DNA of 64,000 nucleotides from Candidatus Margulisiibacteriota bacterium (GTDB lineage: Bacteria; Margulisbacteria; WOR-1; O2-12-FULL-45-9; XYB2-FULL-48-7): assembly GCA_041661965.1 (NCBI GenBank), contig JBAZTH010000001.1:226710-290709 (forward strand), given 5' to 3'. How positions within the stretch are numbered: the stretch's first letter is position 1; each line of letters begins with the position of its first letter. This document shows, piece after piece, positions 3,175 through 56,734 of the stretch. Both the position numbers and the translations under genes were made by a program. A model generated the notes under the pieces. That model worked only from the letters and a program-made list of their open reading frames with translations, had not been told where the DNA came from and did no database searches.

Positions 3175-5154
3175 ATGAGAAAGGTGATGGTCGCCGGGTT
3201 TTGCCTGGCCCTCCTATGCGGATGCGCTATGAATAATAAAGCTCTCGATCTTAATAACCTCGACACCTCCGTTAAACCGGGGGCCGATTTTTATCGCTAT
3301 GCCATCGGCAACTGGCAGAAAAACAACCCGATCCCGGCCGAGTACAGCAGTTGGGGGAGCTTTGTCATCCTGGGAGAAGAGAACCTTATAACCCTGCGGG
3401 AGATTATGGAGACGGGCAAAGGACAAGTCGGCGATTTCTACGCCAGCGGGATGGACGAGAAAAAGATCGAAAAGGCGGGGATCAAGCCGCTGGCCGATGA
3501 ACTCGCCCGGATCGAAGCGATCAATGATCTGAAGGGATTAACTCTGGCGGTGGCGCATCTCCACCAGTACAGCGCCGATCCGCTCTTCCATATCTTTGTT
3601 GGTCCCGATTATGCCAATAGCGATCTCAATATTGCCGAATTATACCAAGGAGGACTCAATCTCCCTGACCGGGACTACTACCTCAAAGATGATAAATACT
3701 CGAAAGAAATTCGGGCCAAATACCAGCAGTACGTGACTAAGATGTTTATGTTAATGGGAGCGGTAAAGGCGGAGGCAGAGGCGAAAGCCAAGGTGGTCTT
3801 GAAGATCGAAACCGGTTTGGCGAAGATCTCCCGTGATAAAGTCGCCCTCCGCGATCCCCGGAAAAACTACAACCCGCTCTCGTTAAAGACCCTGGCGAAG
3901 CTCGCTAATAAGTTCGATTGGCCCCTCTATTTTCAGACGATCGGCCTGAAAAAACCGGGGAAGATCAATGTCGGCCAGCCGGAATTTTTTGCCGGGCTCA
4001 ATCAGCTTATGGCGACGGTCACGATTGCCGACTGGCGGACCTATTTAACCTTCACCCTGGTCAACGATAACGCCGAGTTCTTGAGCTCGGCATTTGTTAA
4101 TGAAGAGTTTAACTTTTACGGCCGGACCCTGAACGGCAACAAGGTCCTGATGCCCCGCTGGAAACGGGTGGTGGGGACGGTCAACGCCTATCTCGATCAG
4201 GCGGTTGGCCGCTTGTTTGTGAAAGAGCGGTTTTCTCCCCAGGCTAAGAGCCGGGCGGGAGAGATGGTGCGCAACATCCGGGCCGCTTTTAAGAAACGGC
4301 TGGCGGCTCTCGATTGGATGACCGATAAAACTAAAAAAGAGGCCTTTAAGAAGTTGGCGGCGATGACCTTTAAGATCGGCTATCCGGGGAAATGGCGGGA
4401 ATACAAGTTTAAAGTTGAGCGGGGAGAATACCTGGCCAATGTTTTCCGGGGAAATTATTTCGATTTTCATTACGAGCTGAATAAGGTGGGGAAGAAGGTT
4501 GACCGCAACGAGTGGGGGATGCCGGTCCAGATCGTTAATGCCGGTTACATGCCAACTCGTAACGAGATGCTTTTCCCGGCCGGGATCCTCCAACCCCCGT
4601 TCTTTAACGCCGCGGCCGACGATCCGGTCAATTACGGTGCGATCGGGATGGTGATCGCCCACGAAATGACCCACGGCTTTGACGACCAGGGGAGGAAGTT
4701 TGATAAGCGGGGGAACCTGAAGGATTGGTGGACCAAGCAGGACGAGGTTAATTTTAAGGCCAAGGCGAAGGCGGTTGTCGAGCAGGCCGAAGCTTTTGAA
4801 CAATTCCCCGGAATGCCGCTCAACGGGGAGCTGACTTTAGGTGAGAATATAGCTGACCTTGGCGGGGTGAGCATTTCCCATGATGCCCTCCAGTTTGCTT
4901 TAGGGAAGAAAAAACAACCGCTCCTCGACGGTCTGACCCCGGAACGGCGCTTTTTCTTGTCATATGCCGAGGTCTGGAAGACCAATATGCGCGACGAGCG
5001 GGCCAAGCTTTTAGTGAAGGTCGATCCCCATGCCCCGGCGAAATACCGGGTCAACGGCCCCTTAAGCAATCTCCCAGAATTCTACGCCGCCTTCAATATC
5101 GCCTCGAATGAAGCGATGTTCCGTCCGGAAGCGAAACGGGCCAAGGTTTGGTAG
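3175..5154 (+). CDS. pepO: M13-family zinc metallopeptidase (PepO/neprilysin-like), probably a lipoprotein
   Basis: HEMTHGFD (HExxH), GENIADLGG and ExxxD motifs. The N-terminus has an LLCGC lipobox-like signal. Confidence 0.85.
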   Translation: MRKVMVAGFCLALLCGCAMNNKALDLNNLDTSVKPGADFYRYAIGNWQKNNPIPAEYSSWGSFVILGEENLITLREIMETGKGQVGDFYASGMDEKKIEKAGIKPLADELARIEAINDLKGLTLAVAHLHQYSADPLFHIFVGPDYANSDLNIAELYQGGLNLPDRDYYLKDDKYSKEIRAKYQQYVTKMFMLMGAVKAEAEAKAKVVLKIETGLAKISRDKVALRDPRKNYNPLSLKTLAKLANKFDWPLYFQTIGLKKPGKINVGQPEFFAGLNQLMATVTIADWRTYLTFTLVNDNAEFLSSAFVNEEFNFYGRTLNGNKVLMPRWKRVVGTVNAYLDQAVGRLFVKERFSPQAKSRAGEMVRNIRAAFKKRLAALDWMTDKTKKEAFKKLAAMTFKIGYPGKWREYKFKVERGEYLANVFRGNYFDFHYELNKVGKKVDRNEWGMPVQIVNAGYMPTRNEMLFPAGILQPPFFNAAADDPVNYGAIGMVIAHEMTHGFDDQGRKFDKRGNLKDWWTKQDEVNFKAKAKAVVEQAEAFEQFPGMPLNGELTLGENIADLGGVSISHDALQFALGKKKQPLLDGLTPERRFFLSYAEVWKTNMRDERAKLLVKVDPHAPAKYRVNGPLSNLPEFYAAFNIASNEAMFRPEAKRAKVW

Positions 5155-5155
5155 A

Positions 5156-6859
5156 TCAGCGCCAGGTCATATAGCTGTTGATAATCGTTGAGCTCAAAGA
5201 GTAAATTTGCTCTCGTCTGGTAAGCGCTGCCAAGGTTTTTTGGGTTTCTTCCGGGAATTCTCCTTTGGCCTTGAAAATGTTTTCCATAATAGTGCCGAGC
5301 AGCTCAAAATTGCCGCCAAAGTTGTTTTGGTTGAGACCGGCGGCTTCCGTTACTTTAAAAAAATCTTCCAGCCAGCAAGCAATGATTGCGCCAGCGTCAC
5401 CAAGTTTATCGGCCGGGATCAATTCGGTCGAGTCGAAAATCGCTCCTTCGGGCGACAAATTGTTGCTGGTGTTCGGCCGCTTGAAATGGCCGTCGACTAA
5501 CGGGAATTTGCAGGTCAGACGGCAATCAAGGACCGCCCTGATATTCTTGCCGAGGTTGGCGGCCAGATTTGCCAGATGTTTCTCCCGTCCGGCGTCGAAA
5601 CTCTCTTCGGGGAACGAGTCTCTAATGAAGAGCTGATAACTAGCGGCGTTTTCCAGGAAGGCCAATCTTCTGGTGTCGTTCCCCACCGCCCGGGCAAGAA
5701 CAAATAGGTCGCCGCTGTCGTAATCAGGCAAGAACTTCCGGATGGCCGTTTGGTCGAGCAGTCTGATCCTGGAAAGAGAGATTCCTCCCACCTCGGCTCC
5801 GCTGGCGAGCAGCTGCCGGTCGCGGTCGATCGCTTCGGTATCGGCTTCGATCATCCCGCCGACCGGGTCGGCCGTGGCGGGCGGAGGCTGGTGGAACTGG
5901 TCAAGGAAAAGGCCGAACTTTTCGAATAAATTGGGATAACCGACCATCACCATTTCCTTGCCCCGCCATTCATCCGCCTGATAGAATGGCATCACTGCTT
6001 CGCCGGGCAAGAGCGGGAGTCGGCCGTCTTGCCCCGGCTTGACGGCATGACCGACGTAATTGGCGCCGGCACCTTTAAACTGCAGGCAGCAGCCGGTGTA
6101 AAGCGCGGCGTGGCCGAGCGGAGCAAAATGACGGAGCATCATCCTGGCGAAGGCAGGCCAGCGGAACCGCTCTGAAAAAATCGGCCAAGCAATTTTTTCT
6201 TCGTCAGTTGGAATATTCTGCCAAATGTTTTCTAATTGTTGTTCCAGGCTGGCGAGCGTTGTTGTTGTGTTCTGTCCGGTCTCATTTAAAAATGAGCTTA
6301 TATACAGCTCCAGATCTTTCATCGATTTCGGGATAAAAGGTTCGTCTTCAATCCTGGCAAGAGAAAATTGTTTGCCTAAATCCTTGATGGCGCCGTAGAC
6401 CGGGAAGAAATTGTGATGGGGATCGGACAGGACCCTAGTTCCCCAAACGCAGAAATAAGGGAAAGTTATCTTTTCTCCTTTATTATTTCTGACCGGGGTG
6501 AGGCCCAACGTCTCTAATTCCTGGTCGGATAAACGGCGATTTTTTATGTAGAGGCCGCCGGTCAAAGGGACGATATTCCCTTCCTTATGATCGAGGCGGA
6601 GAGAGAAGTTGGGGAGGGCGGTTAAGGGGTCAGGCTCCCATTTCGCACCGCGGACAAAATAAAAGGCGGTCTCCGCCAGCAGTAGTTTTTGCGGGGCGTA
6701 AGCCAGTCTCGGCCCATCTTTGGTCGAGCAAAAGCCGCCGACGCCGGCTAGCGGGGTGTTTCGCCTCTCTCTAGCGCGCTCTTCGACCTGGTTAGCGGTG
6801 TGTCCCCTGAAGACAGGATGTTCAGCCGCGATGATGCCGGCTGAACTTTTGTTAAACAT
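5156..6859 (-). CDS. Large hypothetical protein of 567 aa with no recognised domain; last gene of the rSAM operon
   Basis: Long intact ORF. The likely start, ATG at 6859 (MFNKSSAGII), overlaps the stop of the upstream 65-aa ORF as ATGTTTAA. The track ORF extends to a TTG at 7045. Confidence 0.5.
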   Translation of the reverse strand: MFNKSSAGIIAAEHPVFRGHTANQVEERARERRNTPLAGVGGFCSTKDGPRLAYAPQKLLLAETAFYFVRGAKWEPDPLTALPNFSLRLDHKEGNIVPLTGGLYIKNRRLSDQELETLGLTPVRNNKGEKITFPYFCVWGTRVLSDPHHNFFPVYGAIKDLGKQFSLARIEDEPFIPKSMKDLELYISSFLNETGQNTTTTLASLEQQLENIWQNIPTDEEKIAWPIFSERFRWPAFARMMLRHFAPLGHAALYTGCCLQFKGAGANYVGHAVKPGQDGRLPLLPGEAVMPFYQADEWRGKEMVMVGYPNLFEKFGLFLDQFHQPPPATADPVGGMIEADTEAIDRDRQLLASGAEVGGISLSRIRLLDQTAIRKFLPDYDSGDLFVLARAVGNDTRRLAFLENAASYQLFIRDSFPEESFDAGREKHLANLAANLGKNIRAVLDCRLTCKFPLVDGHFKRPNTSNNLSPEGAIFDSTELIPADKLGDAGAIIACWLEDFFKVTEAAGLNQNNFGGNFELLGTIMENIFKAKGEFPEETQKTLAALTRREQIYSLSSTIINSYMTWR

Positions 6860-7049
6860 TGGGCAGCCTATGAGCGTATTTTTCCATAGCCTCAGCTCTC
6901 TCGGGGTCCATGTGCATGGGTATGCCGATATATACTTCTTCAATGGATGCGACCGGATTTTCCTGATCGGTCGGCTTCCTGCCGTCTTTTTCAGGATAGA
7001 CCCATAAAGGGGCTTTCCATTTATCCAGAGGTTTAAACCTGACAAGCAT
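6852..7049 (-). CDS. Small 65-aa hypothetical protein
   Basis: Strong SD (AAAGGGGAAG) lies 5-7 nt before the ATG at 7049. It is translationally coupled to the downstream large ORF. Confidence 0.4.
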   Translation of the reverse strand: MLVRFKPLDKWKAPLWVYPEKDGRKPTDQENPVASIEEVYIGIPMHMDPERAEAMEKYAHRLPNV

Positions 7050-7079
7050 TTTCTTCCCCTTTAGTTAAAAGATTCTCTT

Positions 7080-7898
7080 CTATGGGAACAACCGATTCAA
7101 AATAGACAACGCGTCCCGGATCAAATTAGGATAGTAATCAGGGTTGCGCGAACCATTTAGTCCGTCTTGATATTCCCGATATTCGAAGGCCAGTCTGGCG
7201 CCGCCCCCAGAATTAAGGTACTCCAGCCATGGTCTGATATCCTCACCGGCCAACCAAGCTTCTATCCGTATTTTCCTTTCAGGGTTATGTCCGATCTCAA
7301 ATATTTTTGCGCAGGTTCCCCTTAAATATTCCAGCCGATCGCAGCTAAGCGGGCGCACTGGCTTGGGCGGGATCTCGATCTCTTCGACCGGCAGGCCAAG
7401 CACCCGCTGGAAATTGATGATAGTTTCGGCCACTTTACAAAACGCATCCCGCCTCACAAGTAAATCTTTCCAGCTGCTCCCATCCGGCCCGCTTTGAGCG
7501 TTATATCTTTCTATTTCGGCTTTTGCGAACGCGATCCAGGTTTCGGCCTCCTTTTGTACGGCGAACCAATTATCAAGGGCAAGCCCTTTTCTCCATAAAT
7601 TCTTGCCCTCGACCAGCAGCGTCATAGGAGCAAAGGCCATCGACGAGGGAGTGATTGGTTCGGGCGAACTTTCTCGCAAGCCGCAGAAGGTGAAAGTTCC
7701 TCTGGTCCTGCCGGGAGTCACGTCCACAAGCTGATTGAGCTCTAAGGCAGGACGTTGTCCCGAGAGCGGTCCGGTCCGGGCTACGCCGCTTTGTCTTTCC
7801 ACCAGGGAGACGCTGACTATTCTGCGATTCTGGTCGATATACGAAACCCGGGCCAAAAAATGCGGGGCTCCCGGTCCTGTTCTGGATATGCCGCTCAT
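7080..7898 (-). CDS. Hypothetical 272-aa protein
   Basis: SD GGAGA lies 7 nt upstream of the ATG at 7898. No recognised motifs. Confidence 0.45.
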   Translation of the reverse strand: MSGISRTGPGAPHFLARVSYIDQNRRIVSVSLVERQSGVARTGPLSGQRPALELNQLVDVTPGRTRGTFTFCGLRESSPEPITPSSMAFAPMTLLVEGKNLWRKGLALDNWFAVQKEAETWIAFAKAEIERYNAQSGPDGSSWKDLLVRRDAFCKVAETIINFQRVLGLPVEEIEIPPKPVRPLSCDRLEYLRGTCAKIFEIGHNPERKIRIEAWLAGEDIRPWLEYLNSGGGARLAFEYREYQDGLNGSRNPDYYPNLIRDALSILNRLFP

Positions 7899-7962: not shown

Positions 7963-9606
7963 TCAACGATTTTGGTCCCTGGCCGCCTTCAGCCCATCCA
8001 AAAAAAGGCCGAGCGCGGTCATGTAAATAATCGACGGATAAAACCGGCTAATTGCCTCGTAAATCGAAAGTTTTTCCGGCAGGCGGCGCCGCGCTTTGAG
8101 CAGTTTTGCTATGCCGAGGTTATGGCCTTTCCCGCAAACCCGCATGAATCTTTTGAGATCGCGGACAGAGAAGTAGCTGCTGCCCAGGATTTCATTTAAC
8201 AATTTATTTAACCGAGCGTCGACGATTGGCAGATTTACCGGCAATTGTTTCACCGCGCCGGCGGGACTGACGACCTTATGACAGTTGCGCGGATCGATCA
8301 AGGCGGCAAGGCGGCTGTTCTCAAAGGCGGAGAGATTGACGTTTACGGAAAGCGACATCGTTTTGAATTGCCGCATAGTTCGCTTAATGTTTTCCAACTG
8401 GTCGATCAGAATATCGAGCGTGATATCCGGAAAGGTCAGGATGGAGTAATGGACCTGTTTTATGCCGCGGCGGTCGAGAGCCTGCATCAGTTTTTCCGCC
8501 ATCTCAAAGGTGTAGCCTCCCTTGCCTAAATATTTTAAGACGGCGGGATGGAAGCCGTCGGTCCCGATCTTGACGCTCAATGGCTTAACGGCGGCCAGCA
8601 GATCGAGCAGTTGTTTATCCAGTTTGCCGCGCCGGAAAAAAGAGCCGACGCCTCCCTGGAAATCGAAGCGGAAAGAGTGCGACAGGGCCGGGTCGGCGGC
8701 GACCGCCCGCAGGAAAGAGACCGCCCGGGCGCGGTCCTGGAAGAAATCGTCGTCGTCGAAGGTCACCTCTCTGGCGGCGGGCGGGAGGATCCCTTTTTTA
8801 ACCATCAGGTCGATCCGTTTGAGTTCCTGGACGATCCGCTCCGCCGTCCAGGCGATCGGCTGGAGGTGATACTTGTGCGAGCAGAATACGCAGCGGTAGC
8901 GGCAGCCGCGCCTGGTGTTGAGCCGCAGGGCGCCGACCATTTTTATTTCAGCGACCAGTTCCGGATAGCCGACTAGCGCTGGCTGGGCATTGAGCTCCTC
9001 GACGCTCAATATGTTTGGCCGTTCGTCCCAATGCTCGAAATTCCCGGCTTTGACGTAGGTGCCGCGCAGTTCCATGATCGCCGCTTGGTCGACAGTTTGG
9101 CCGATCAGGGCGGAGACCAAAATGGGGAGCGCTTTTTCGCCGTCCCCTTTGACCAGGGCAGTCCCTGCCGGAAAAAATGTCGCCAGGTCTTTTAAGTTGG
9201 CGCAGGTGTTGACCGCCGGGCCCCCGACAATGATCTTGGCCTCGGGGAGCAATTTCCTGATCCAATGGGCTTACTTGAGAGTCTCTCCAAACAGGTCGTC
9301 ATATAATGATAAGGCGAAGACGAGTGGGCGCCCTTCGCCGGCCAGCCGGCCGGACAACGCTTTCTTTTCGCCTTCACCCATTTTAATAAAGGGGAGCCGC
9401 TGAAACTCGACTCTTCCCGCGCCGGCTTCCCTTACGGCCAGGGCCAAGGCGAGGGCGGCATTGGTGATCGAGGAGTATTCTTTGTCCGGGATGGAGCTTT
9501 TGTCGATAAAACGCATATCGAAGACAACAATTGGCTTTCCGCTCCGACGGACGGCCCGGACAGCTGACGGAAAGACCGGCAGGAATTTTCTGATAGCTAG
9601 TTCCAT
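7963..9606 (-). pseudogene. B12-binding (class B) radical SAM enzyme, interrupted by an in-frame TAA at 9271-9273
   Basis: The N-terminal 111-aa ORF (9606-9274) is a cobalamin-binding Rossmann-like domain. After the TAA the same frame continues AHWIRKLLPEAKIIVGGP (B12-domain signature) into the CRYRCVFCSHKY CxxxCxxC radical-SAM core. The track lists the second part from a TTG at 9252. Confidence 0.7.
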
Positions 9607-9657: not shown

Positions 9658-9687
9658 TTGACAAAATATAGTGAAATACCATATAAT
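9658..9687 (+). promoter_or_regulatory. Sigma70-type promoter (TTGACA-18-TATAAT) for the Rrf2-cysK-met operon
   Basis: TTGACA at 9658-9663 and TATAAT at 9682-9687. Downstream ATATAGT-type repeats are possible Rrf2 operator half-sites. Confidence 0.5.
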
Positions 9688-53936: not shown

Positions 53937-56734
53937 TTAAGCGGGATTTTTCGGGAGCGTGAAAGTGAATTTTGACCCGACGTTCTCCTGCGATTCGACC
54001 TGGATCCGCCCGCCATGGAGCTCGATCAGCGACTTGACGATCGCCAGTCCCAGGCCGTCCCTTTCTCCCCGCCGCCCGCGACCCGGCCGAATTGCGTGAA
54101 TTTTTCAAATAATTTGGGCAGATTGGCAGCGGCAATGCCCCGGCCGGTATCGGCGACGCTACATCCGACCTCCTTGTCGTTTTCCTCGCAGGATATTTCG
54201 ATCCGGCCTTTGTCCGTGAATTTCAACGCGTTGCCGATCAGGTTGGTCAAGACTTCGGTGATCTCGTCGCGGTCGGCGTTCAAGATGACCGGAGCGGCGG
54301 GCAGCCGTTCGATCAGTTCCAGCCCTTTCTTCTCCGCCTGCGGACGGAAAGCCGCTAAGGTCTCCCTCATCAGTTGTGCAATATCAAGCGGCTCCTTTTT
54401 GGCTTCCATCCGGCCCGATTCCAGGCGGGAAATATCGAGCAGATCGTTGACGATACGGGCCAGGCGGTCAATGCTCCGAAGGGTCGTCGATAGAAATCTG
54501 GTTTGCCCTTCATTGATCGGCCCATGAATTCCCTCCAGCACTTGCGCCACTCCTTCGTGGATGATCGCCATCGGGGTGCGTAGTTCGTGTGAAACGGTAT
54601 TGACGAAATCGTCTCTGATGTTGACCAGCCGCTTGAAATCGGTGATGTCGACAACGGCGCCGATGCAGCGGACGGCCTTGCCCTGTTTATCAGACTGCAG
54701 TTCGGCTTTCTCCCGGACCCATTTGACCCGGCCATCGACAATGATCCGGTGTTCTATGTCATATTGCTTGCTGACCAGCGCGGCTTGCCAGGCACTGATT
54801 ACGGCGGCCCTGTCGTCAGGATGAACAAAACCGACGAATTTATCGTAACTTACCGGCGCGCCGGCCGGAACGTTAAAAATCTTATAAGTTTCATCGGTCC
54901 AGGTCAGAATGTCGTTTGTGATATCGAAGTCCCAGCTCCCGACCAGGGCCAGTTCCTGCGATTTTTGAAGGCGGTAGCTCTCGATTGCCAGTTTTTCTTC
55001 AGCCTGTTTGCGCTGGGTTATATCGTCGTAAACGGCGACGACCTCGCCGGTCGGCAATTTATAGATATAATTTTCCCGCCAGCCGCTGATCCGCTGATCT
55101 TGATAAAGACCGATCGGGAAATGTTCCGGCTGTCCCGTCCGCCAGACCCGCAGCAGGATATCGAACAAACCGAATGACTTGACTCCCGGGAAGACTTCCA
55201 GCACGCCCCGGCCGACCACCGCTTGCCTGTTAACTTTTTCGATCTGCTCTGCCGCCCGGTTAATGTCCGAAATGATAAAATCTTCGCTGCCGTTTTGTCG
55301 GTAGAGATAAATGACGACGCCGCTGCTCATATTGTCAAAAAGCGACTGGAATTTTACGGCGCTGTCTTTAACGATGCGCTCCAAGGCTTTTTTATAAGTG
55401 ATATCGTTGACCGTTATAATGACGCCCTGGGGTTTTTCAGTGGCGTTTTTGGTAAGGGCCGCGTTGATCGAACCGACAAATTGACTGCCGTCCCGGCGCA
55501 GCAGCGAGTATTCGAGTTCCTTGATCAGGCCGGTCTCCACCGTTTGCTGAAAACTCTTGCGCGCGGCGTTCCGTTGCTCCGGCGTGACCAACTCGAAAAT
55601 GTTTCGGCCGATCATCTCTTCAAGATTTTTTATTCCGTTCATTTTAAGCGCTTCAGCGGATGCGTAGGTGATCTTGCCTTCGAGATCGGCCGCGACAACA
55701 GCGTCGGGGGAAGCGCTGACCAGCCGTTCGAAATTTTCCTTACTTTCTATCAATTCTATCTCGCCCTGGCGCCTGATGATCAAATAAAACCCGAAGCCGA
55801 GCAGTCCCAAGCTTAACAGCCCGATCGCGGCGGCGCGCAGCCCGATCCAAAGCATGGGCGAATAAATTTCCCGGGCGTCGACTTTTGAAATAATGAACCA
55901 GCTTGTGCCGGGAATAGGACGGCCGACCGCCAGGACCGGCACGCCCCGGTAATCGATACCGGTCAGCAGGCGGCTGACGCCTCTGACGGCCATGGCAGCG
56001 GGCAGATATTTCGTGCCGACCGGGAAATGAAGATTGAGAGCGGCGTCCTTTTTGTGGCGAAGTTCGTTCAAAAACACGACCTCGCCGCTTTGTTGCCTGA
56101 CGAGCAGGGTTTCGGCGGAATCGCTCGGCACCGGCCAGATCTGGATCAGGGGAAAGAGGAAAAGCTCGGGATCGATGCGCAGGATCAACACCCCGGCTGC
56201 GTCCCCGTCGTTCATGATCGGCACGCCAATATCCAGCTTGATCCTGCCGTTAGCGCCCCGATGAAAGTCGCAGAGCGTCGATTGTTTTGACCGCAATGTA
56301 TCCAAAATCAATTTTTGTTCATCAACGATATTGATCGGACTATTTTTGTTCTCCGACAGCAGGACAAGGCCGGCCCGGTTGACCAGGCACAGGTTCTCGT
56401 ATTTATGGTGTTTCTTCAATATCCTCATCCAGGTCAAGACTTCCTGCTTTAATTCAGCTGAGCGGCCGCCCTCGAGCCACAACAAAAACGGTTTCGTGAC
56501 TAAGGGAATTTCATTAATGAACGCGGCGTCTTCCATTTGTTTCTGATGCCAATTCTCGATCTGATCGACTTTCAGGTTGGTTATGGCGGTCAGGTTATTG
56601 CGGGCCAATATCTTTAATTGGTCGCGCTGGTTATTAAAATAAGTAAGTCCGATCAGGCAAACTGCCAGCAGGGTAAGCACGACAAAAATGAAAAACCAAA
56701 GGCCGCCGGCGATCCCGGACTTTGACCGCGTCAT
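53937..56734 (-). pseudogene. Multi-PAS sensor histidine kinase with a 1-nt frameshift in the G2 box
   Basis: N-terminal TM plus periplasmic sensor region, second TM, three PAS-like repeats, HisKA (VSHELRTPMA), then N/G1/F boxes. The track ORF ends at 54026 as ...[16 protein letters not shown]. Shifting one nt near 54051-54061 (ACGGCC where ACGGGCC is expected) restores [41 protein letters not shown] with a stop at 53937. Confidence 0.7.

Follow-up and report, generated by a model that had tools for sequence, protein, structure and literature searches.

An in-frame TAA interrupts a cobalamin-type radical SAM gene of a Margulisiibacteriota bacterium, probably through a recent nonsense mutation

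Introduction

Among the radical SAM enzymes of the cobalamin (B12) type, TsrM (6wtf), OxsB (5ul3), TokK (7kdx), CysS (9n1b), MgmA (9ccb) and AprD4 (6fd2) have in common with the gene described here a three-part architecture, in which a Rossmann-like domain is followed by a radical SAM core and this in turn by a helical domain at the C-terminus. AprD4 shares this fold with the others, yet it is not known to use cobalamin, and its place among the fold matches therefore means that fold alone is no proof of B12 dependence. In glutamate mutase (GlmS/MutS with GlmE) the cobalamin-binding Rossmann domain is carried on a separate polypeptide, so that the B12-type Rossmann module and the catalytic module reside on different chains, as they would if the present gene were read as a split enzyme. 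In such two-subunit B12 enzymes the division lies at a domain boundary and is conserved across species. Ordinary nonsense pseudogenes, finally, combine a one-base change at a conserved codon and a normal stop with intact homologues, and are called as two ORFs.

Here we describe a class-B-like radical SAM gene with an in-frame TAA in a Margulisiibacteriota genome. All coordinates refer to the window, which is the whole 64-kb stretch of DNA analysed. The top Foldseek matches of the gene product in the PDB were all B12-type radical SAM enzymes, aligned over 570-640 columns, and the structures named above were matched with E values of 3e-18 to 3e-13, a probability of 1.0 and TM scores of ~0.55-0.60; OxsB and TokK were also reached by sequence profile. 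In contrast to these enzymes, the gene is confined to Margulisbacteria and interrupted, and the identity to them is 12-17 %. Unlike the division in two-subunit B12 enzymes, its break falls between beta3 and beta4 and occurs in one genome only. It resembles ordinary nonsense pseudogenes in all the features listed, but it shows no secondary decay yet, and its loss of function is something that we infer.

Results

Structure of the interrupted gene

On the minus strand the frame reads ...LSLYDDLFGETLK, followed by TAA at 9273-9271 and then by AHWIRKLLPEAKIIVGGPAVN..., and the same frame continues past the TAA as AHWIRK-LLPEAKIIVGGPAVN... as far as the stop at 7965-7963. Minus-strand translation thus reproduced the in-frame TAA, the coordinates and the amino-acid strings that the first-pass annotation had given. 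The parts of the gene are the following.

7963..9606, minus strand: whole interrupted gene, 547 codons (single-frame translation, end-to-end homologue alignment, AlphaFold, Foldseek)
9274..9606, minus strand: N-terminal fragment ORF, 111 codons (plus the stop, to 9271), starting at ATG 9606 and covering beta1-beta3 and the first half of helix alpha3
9271..9273, minus strand: premature TAA at codon 112, in place of a conserved Glu (GAA>TAA, G>T on the coding strand)
9253..9270, minus strand: six homologous codons, AHWIRK, forming the second half of helix alpha3 and including the near-invariant I116
9250..9252, minus strand: TTG, the sole candidate restart codon, exactly 18 nt past the stop
7963..9252, minus strand: C-terminal fragment ORF, 429 codons plus stop (stop at 7965-7963)
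9097..9534, minus strand: Rossmann-like (cobalamin-binding-like) domain, residues ~25-170, which contains the stop (weak PF02310 match and model secondary structure)
8413..8916, minus strand: radical SAM core PF04055, residues 231-398 (E 9e-11, 42.6 bits against a cut-off of 29.5)
8881..8904, minus strand: CX3CX2C [4Fe-4S] cluster motif CRYRCVFC, residues 235-242, intact, with C235, C239 and C242 invariant in the family

Among 5.8 billion proteins searched, an exact match to the 429-aa product was present, together with nine relatives that are 38-49 % identical and each far longer than either half. The fused 547-aa sequence aligned end to end with all nine full-length homologues in one frame on both sides of the stop, and in an enlarged alignment with 27 family members in all; the full-length homologues measure 479-600 aa. 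Furthermore, six out of six related genomic or metagenomic loci free of lesions are single ORFs across the stop site. Neither half alone was matched by a B12-binding model, whereas with the two fused (X at the stop) several NCBIfam B12-radical-SAM models start at residues 77-97, upstream of the stop. Because the homologues follow the fused sequence collinearly before and after the stop and, in undamaged copies, are single ORFs at this site, the 111-codon and 429-codon ORFs are, as judged from these alignments, halves of one B12-type radical SAM gene; this is what the first-pass annotation had proposed, and the fold matches agree with it.

Orthologues naturally split at the same point, which would have spoken against that proposal, were looked for, and no split at codon 112 was found among the other family members. 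A naturally split enzyme should display the same split in its orthologues and a proper start signal for its second gene, and we found neither.

Four shorter sequences were considered as natural short or split forms and rejected. For P0009 (479 aa) the public start call is 68 codons late, and an in-frame ATG at 7798 of its locus (L003, 7798-8003) restores the conserved N-terminus (…RRPLVVFDMALKD…). P0028 is cut by the end of its contig, and P0015 and P0022 are the C-terminal fragments of two damaged loci described below, L012 and L010, respectively.

Protein architecture and position of the break

The AlphaFold model of the fused sequence, with the family alignment as input, reached a pLDDT of 83 and a pTM of 0.80. 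Its secondary structure runs through beta 26-29, alpha 49-60, beta 65-68, alpha 78-90, beta 95-100, alpha 103-119, beta 124-128, beta 150-152 and alpha 156-167, which puts residue 112 halfway along helix alpha3, the helix that links beta3 to beta4 in the Rossmann-like domain. The radical SAM core sets in near residue 225-231, about 110 residues past the stop. The stop had been described as lying exactly at the junction of B12 domain and core, with its continuation as the canonical end of the cobalamin-binding domain; the model instead places it inside the domain, where IIVGGP forms beta4 and is still followed by beta5 and alpha5. PF02310 matched the fused sequence weakly (E 0.008, 16.4 bits against a cut-off of 32.1), with residues 91-162 aligned to profile positions 49-119 of 121; this alignment spans the stop, which falls at about position 70 of the profile.

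The CX3CX2C motif and a PF04055 match above the gathering score place the gene in the radical SAM superfamily, and the Rossmann-like domain ahead of the core, weak by sequence and clear by fold, corresponds to class B. None of the named NCBIfam B12-radical-SAM equivalogs (ladderane lipid radical SAM TIGR04072, PhpK, ArsL, HpnJ, BchE, etc.) was reached, the best NCBIfam score for the fused gene being 52.3 bits against a cut-off of 360. The assignment to the B12-type radical SAM enzymes is hence one supported at the level of the modelled fold, and the use of cobalamin is putative.

Origin and authenticity of the stop codon

The alignment column of the stop holds Glu in all nine of the first homologues and in 23 of the 27 members of the enlarged alignment (R in two, A in two), and none of the homologues has a stop there. 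Where codons were read they were GAA (n=4) or GAG (n=4). Since this is a Glu column with GAA and GAG codons and GAA is one base from TAA, a single G>T nonsense change accounts for the stop. The premature stop thus stands at a sense position of intact homologues, as in a pseudogene. A recent nonsense mutation was one of four options raised by the first-pass annotation, and it is the one that we favour.

Decay elsewhere in the gene was not seen. At columns conserved in at least 90 % of the family the window sequence keeps 48 out of 49 residues, the one difference being I for V, which ranks it among the least deviant members, and neither a second lesion nor a loss of conserved residues points to relaxed selection. 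With no other decay in the gene, the mutation either happened recently or has left two pieces on which selection still acts, and on sequence grounds the intact state would fit a recent event and, equally, a two-piece gene under selection. Among the 5.8 billion proteins there is no intact near-identical allele; the next relative is 49 % identical.

We considered whether the TAA could be a sequencing or assembly error, the true codon being GAA. The great length of the contig (614 kb) may point to long-read assembly, and the window contains another lesion of the technical-error type, in the gene of a 902-aa histidine kinase with PAS/dCache domains (56734-54026, minus strand), where the loss of one nucleotide from a run of G near 54,075 shifts the frame within the G2 box of HATPase_c (region 53950-54120). 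The lesion of the radical SAM gene, in contrast, is a substitution and not an indel, and the Logan assembly of run SRR6484324 agrees with the window without a mismatch over 6,336 nt, TAA included. The 111-aa product was found in about six contig blocks and two NCBI MAG accessions, the two MAGs being represented by the proteins MFA6169337.1 and MFA6418343.1, and the lack of a full-length near-identical allele among the searched proteins also speaks against an error. Even the histidine kinase frameshift recurs, its truncated product being present in the Logan assembly of a different run (SRR18595301), which matches the window without a difference over 5,709 nt. In NCBI the 111-aa half is recorded as 'hypothetical protein WCW67_04275' and the 429-aa half as 'radical SAM protein', each under two accessions. 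Since the substitution recurs in different assemblers and records, a base-call or assembly error, which the first-pass annotation had left as an option, is very unlikely, and we give it hardly any credence.

Readthrough and translational restart

Low-level readthrough or suppression could keep some full-length enzyme, either from a leaky nonsense allele or by programmed recoding, and it would benefit from the frame being kept across the stop and from the remaining gene being intact. However, TAA is the commonest genuine stop of the window, terminating 31 of the 59 longest ORFs, and the stop is unique to the window gene, so there is nothing conserved or programmed about it. The only tRNA in the 64-kb window is a tRNA-Ala, and no suppressor tRNA was found there. 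Folding of the 150 nt of RNA that surround the stop was not better than that of shuffled sequences (z = 0.34). UAA followed by G is an efficient terminator in bacteria, and to our knowledge UAA has not been reassigned in any bacterium. The marks of programmed readthrough or of a reassigned TAA were accordingly not found, the earlier suggestion of readthrough gains no support from stop usage, tRNA content or RNA folding, and we see only a slim chance for it. Frameshifting was dismissed as irrelevant because the frame is the same on both sides of the stop.

A further explanation is that both the 111-aa and the 429-aa proteins are made, the latter by a terminating ribosome that reinitiates at TTG 9252, and that the enzyme is reassembled non-covalently or works as the C-terminal fragment alone. 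The TTG is present 18 nt past the stop, as the first-pass annotation had stated, and its use as a start by the JGI and NCBI gene callers speaks for this possibility, as does the undecayed state of both halves. In an exact look-up of the 429-aa product, the form starting with L (P0001) was found on no contig and the form starting with M was matched. Against a split enzyme, the break is in the middle of a helix of the Rossmann fold and not at a domain boundary. Restart at the TTG would moreover leave the AHWIRK codons out of both products, so that, together with the position of the stop, seven residues (E112-K118) including the conserved E112 and I116 would be lacking from either fragment, and the C-terminal one would also lack beta1-beta3. 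The start context is poor as well: the sequence before the TTG is cAGGAaa, in which AGGA is a mere 2 nt away from the start codon, whereas several window genes have AGGAGG-like sites 7-9 nt upstream of their starts and many others look leaderless. Reinitiation after termination does not strictly require a Shine-Dalgarno site. Weighing these points together with the lesions of related genes given in the next section, we regard a functional split enzyme, the strongest of the rival readings, as unlikely.

Many genes of the window have a TATAAT box 6-10 nt before the ATG and no Shine-Dalgarno sequence (e.g., ATG 3175, 14162 and 59731 on the plus strand; 37576 and 32895 on the minus strand), which suggests that leaderless mRNAs may be frequent in this genome.

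Distribution of the family and lesions in relatives

Members of the family occur only in the Margulisbacteria lineage (MAGs of Margulisiibacteriota, WOR-1 and Saganbacteria), where they form about 20 clusters at 50 % identity. An exhaustive HMM search extended the core family to about 21 cluster representatives, and contig scans added DNA loci. No conserved gene neighbourhood was found among the family loci, whose contexts differ: P0005 is flanked by trmD and rplS, P0009 adjoins an MFS gene and a cluster of glycosyltransferase genes, and P0034 follows trpA and an HD gene. Our literature search found nothing specific on the family. Lesions were seen in three relatives:

L012 (= L020; JBAZPF010000044.1 / Ga0265296_1006203), 6214-6229: 7-nt tandem duplication ATTGTTT ATTGTTT, causing a frameshift
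L010 (CAYQVW010000014.1), 3760-3775: frame change at a G8 run near codon 80, called as 78 aa + 437 aa
L027, a P0006-type homologue, 3540-3560: 1-nt deletion GGG>GG near codon 184, giving 210 + 355 aa

The duplication in L012, which belongs to another Margulisiibacteriota MAG, is at codon ~103, between ALSLF and DDLF, about ten codons upstream of the position of the window's stop, and it leaves a TTG start overlapping the new TGA stop (TTGTTTGA). The frame change in L010 would be either a sequencing indel or the product of a slippage-prone tract. L027 is on a 455-kb contig of long-read style, and a 98 %-identical gene is intact (559 aa) in two short-read assemblies (L028 / L029).

Together with the window gene, L012 and L010 place three independent lesions within residues ~80-112 of ~547, which under a uniform model would occur by chance in roughly 1 % of cases, an estimate that is post hoc and drawn from few lesions, one of them at a homopolymer hot spot. 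This clustering, and the TTG overlapping the stop in L012, count in favour of a split enzyme, and they could mean that breaks in this region are tolerated. On that basis the N-terminal Rossmann domain might be a break-tolerant zone, with the enzyme working as two co-translated fragments or in N-terminally truncated form, or the lesions might be reversible on/off switches; we consider this rather doubtful. The three lesions differ in kind and in the secondary-structure element affected, they are singletons with none common by descent, and the fourth, in L027, is located elsewhere, all of which argues against a split enzyme. Considering the patchy distribution, the lack of conserved neighbours and the independent lesions in other members, the family appears dispensable, and its repeated breakage suggests that its function is accessory and readily given up.

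The HMM search also brought up very large proteins in which a domain akin to the B12-type radical SAM profile occurs between one and eight times, namely P0033 (5091 aa), P0041 (2526 aa), P0049 (2096 aa, with eight matched stretches), P0056 and P0094.

Gene neighbourhood

The flanking genes had been described as intact and using the standard code, and this holds for the immediate neighbours, which are full length with normal stops and encode an Rrf2 protein (150 aa), a PALP/CysK-type protein (309 aa) and a Cys_Met_Meta_PP (MetY-like) protein (425 aa); further away in the window, the histidine kinase gene is frameshifted. This kinase is also the exception among the other same-frame ORF pairs of the window, which are adjacent genes or antisense frames. 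The divergent rrf2-cysK-metY-type gene row (ATG 9723) is preceded by a perfect sigma-70 consensus promoter at 9658-9687 on the plus strand (TTGACA, 18 nt, TATAAT), and no comparable promoter was found for the minus-strand radical SAM gene. Downstream of the latter, at 5156-7898, there are three further minus-strand ORFs of 272 aa, 65 aa and 567-629 aa, which could be affected by polarity from the premature stop; they could be assigned to no family in Pfam or NCBIfam, and none of them has a homologue beside any relative of the radical SAM gene. The window contains no paralogue of the interrupted gene.

Discussion

In this study we traced two public ORFs of a Margulisiibacteriota genome to what is, by the alignments, one interrupted gene, and its interruption is probably a recent nonsense mutation, so that the gene would most likely be a null allele or a pseudogene of recent origin. 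In the course of events that we propose, a single G>T would have turned the GAA of Glu-112 into TAA in a Margulisbacteria-specific, cobalamin-type (class-B-like) radical SAM gene. Ribosomes now meet an ordinary stop after 111 residues, halfway along helix alpha3 in the N-terminal Rossmann-like domain, and the released fragment would comprise beta1-beta3 only, while restart at TTG 9252 would yield a 429-aa protein devoid of these three strands and of half of alpha3. Since both fragments would be incomplete, the full-length enzyme would no longer be made, and the null allele would have become fixed in the sampled population, with further damage not yet accumulated. The mid-helix position of the break, the poor restart context, the lesions elsewhere in the family and the second lesion in the genome were all counted in favour of a nonsense mutation.

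Genes disrupted by a nonsense codon and called as two ORFs are familiar, and this one belongs to an uncharacterised subfamily of a known superfamily and class. For genome annotation it means that the public 111-aa and 429-aa entries stand for a single interrupted gene, to which a pseudogene or disrupted-gene flag should be attached. If instead, as seems improbable, the gene did work in two pieces, its Rossmann-type cofactor domain would be unusual in tolerating fragmentation. Overall, the analysis sets out the extent of a small and so far uncharacterised family of class-B-like radical SAM enzymes.
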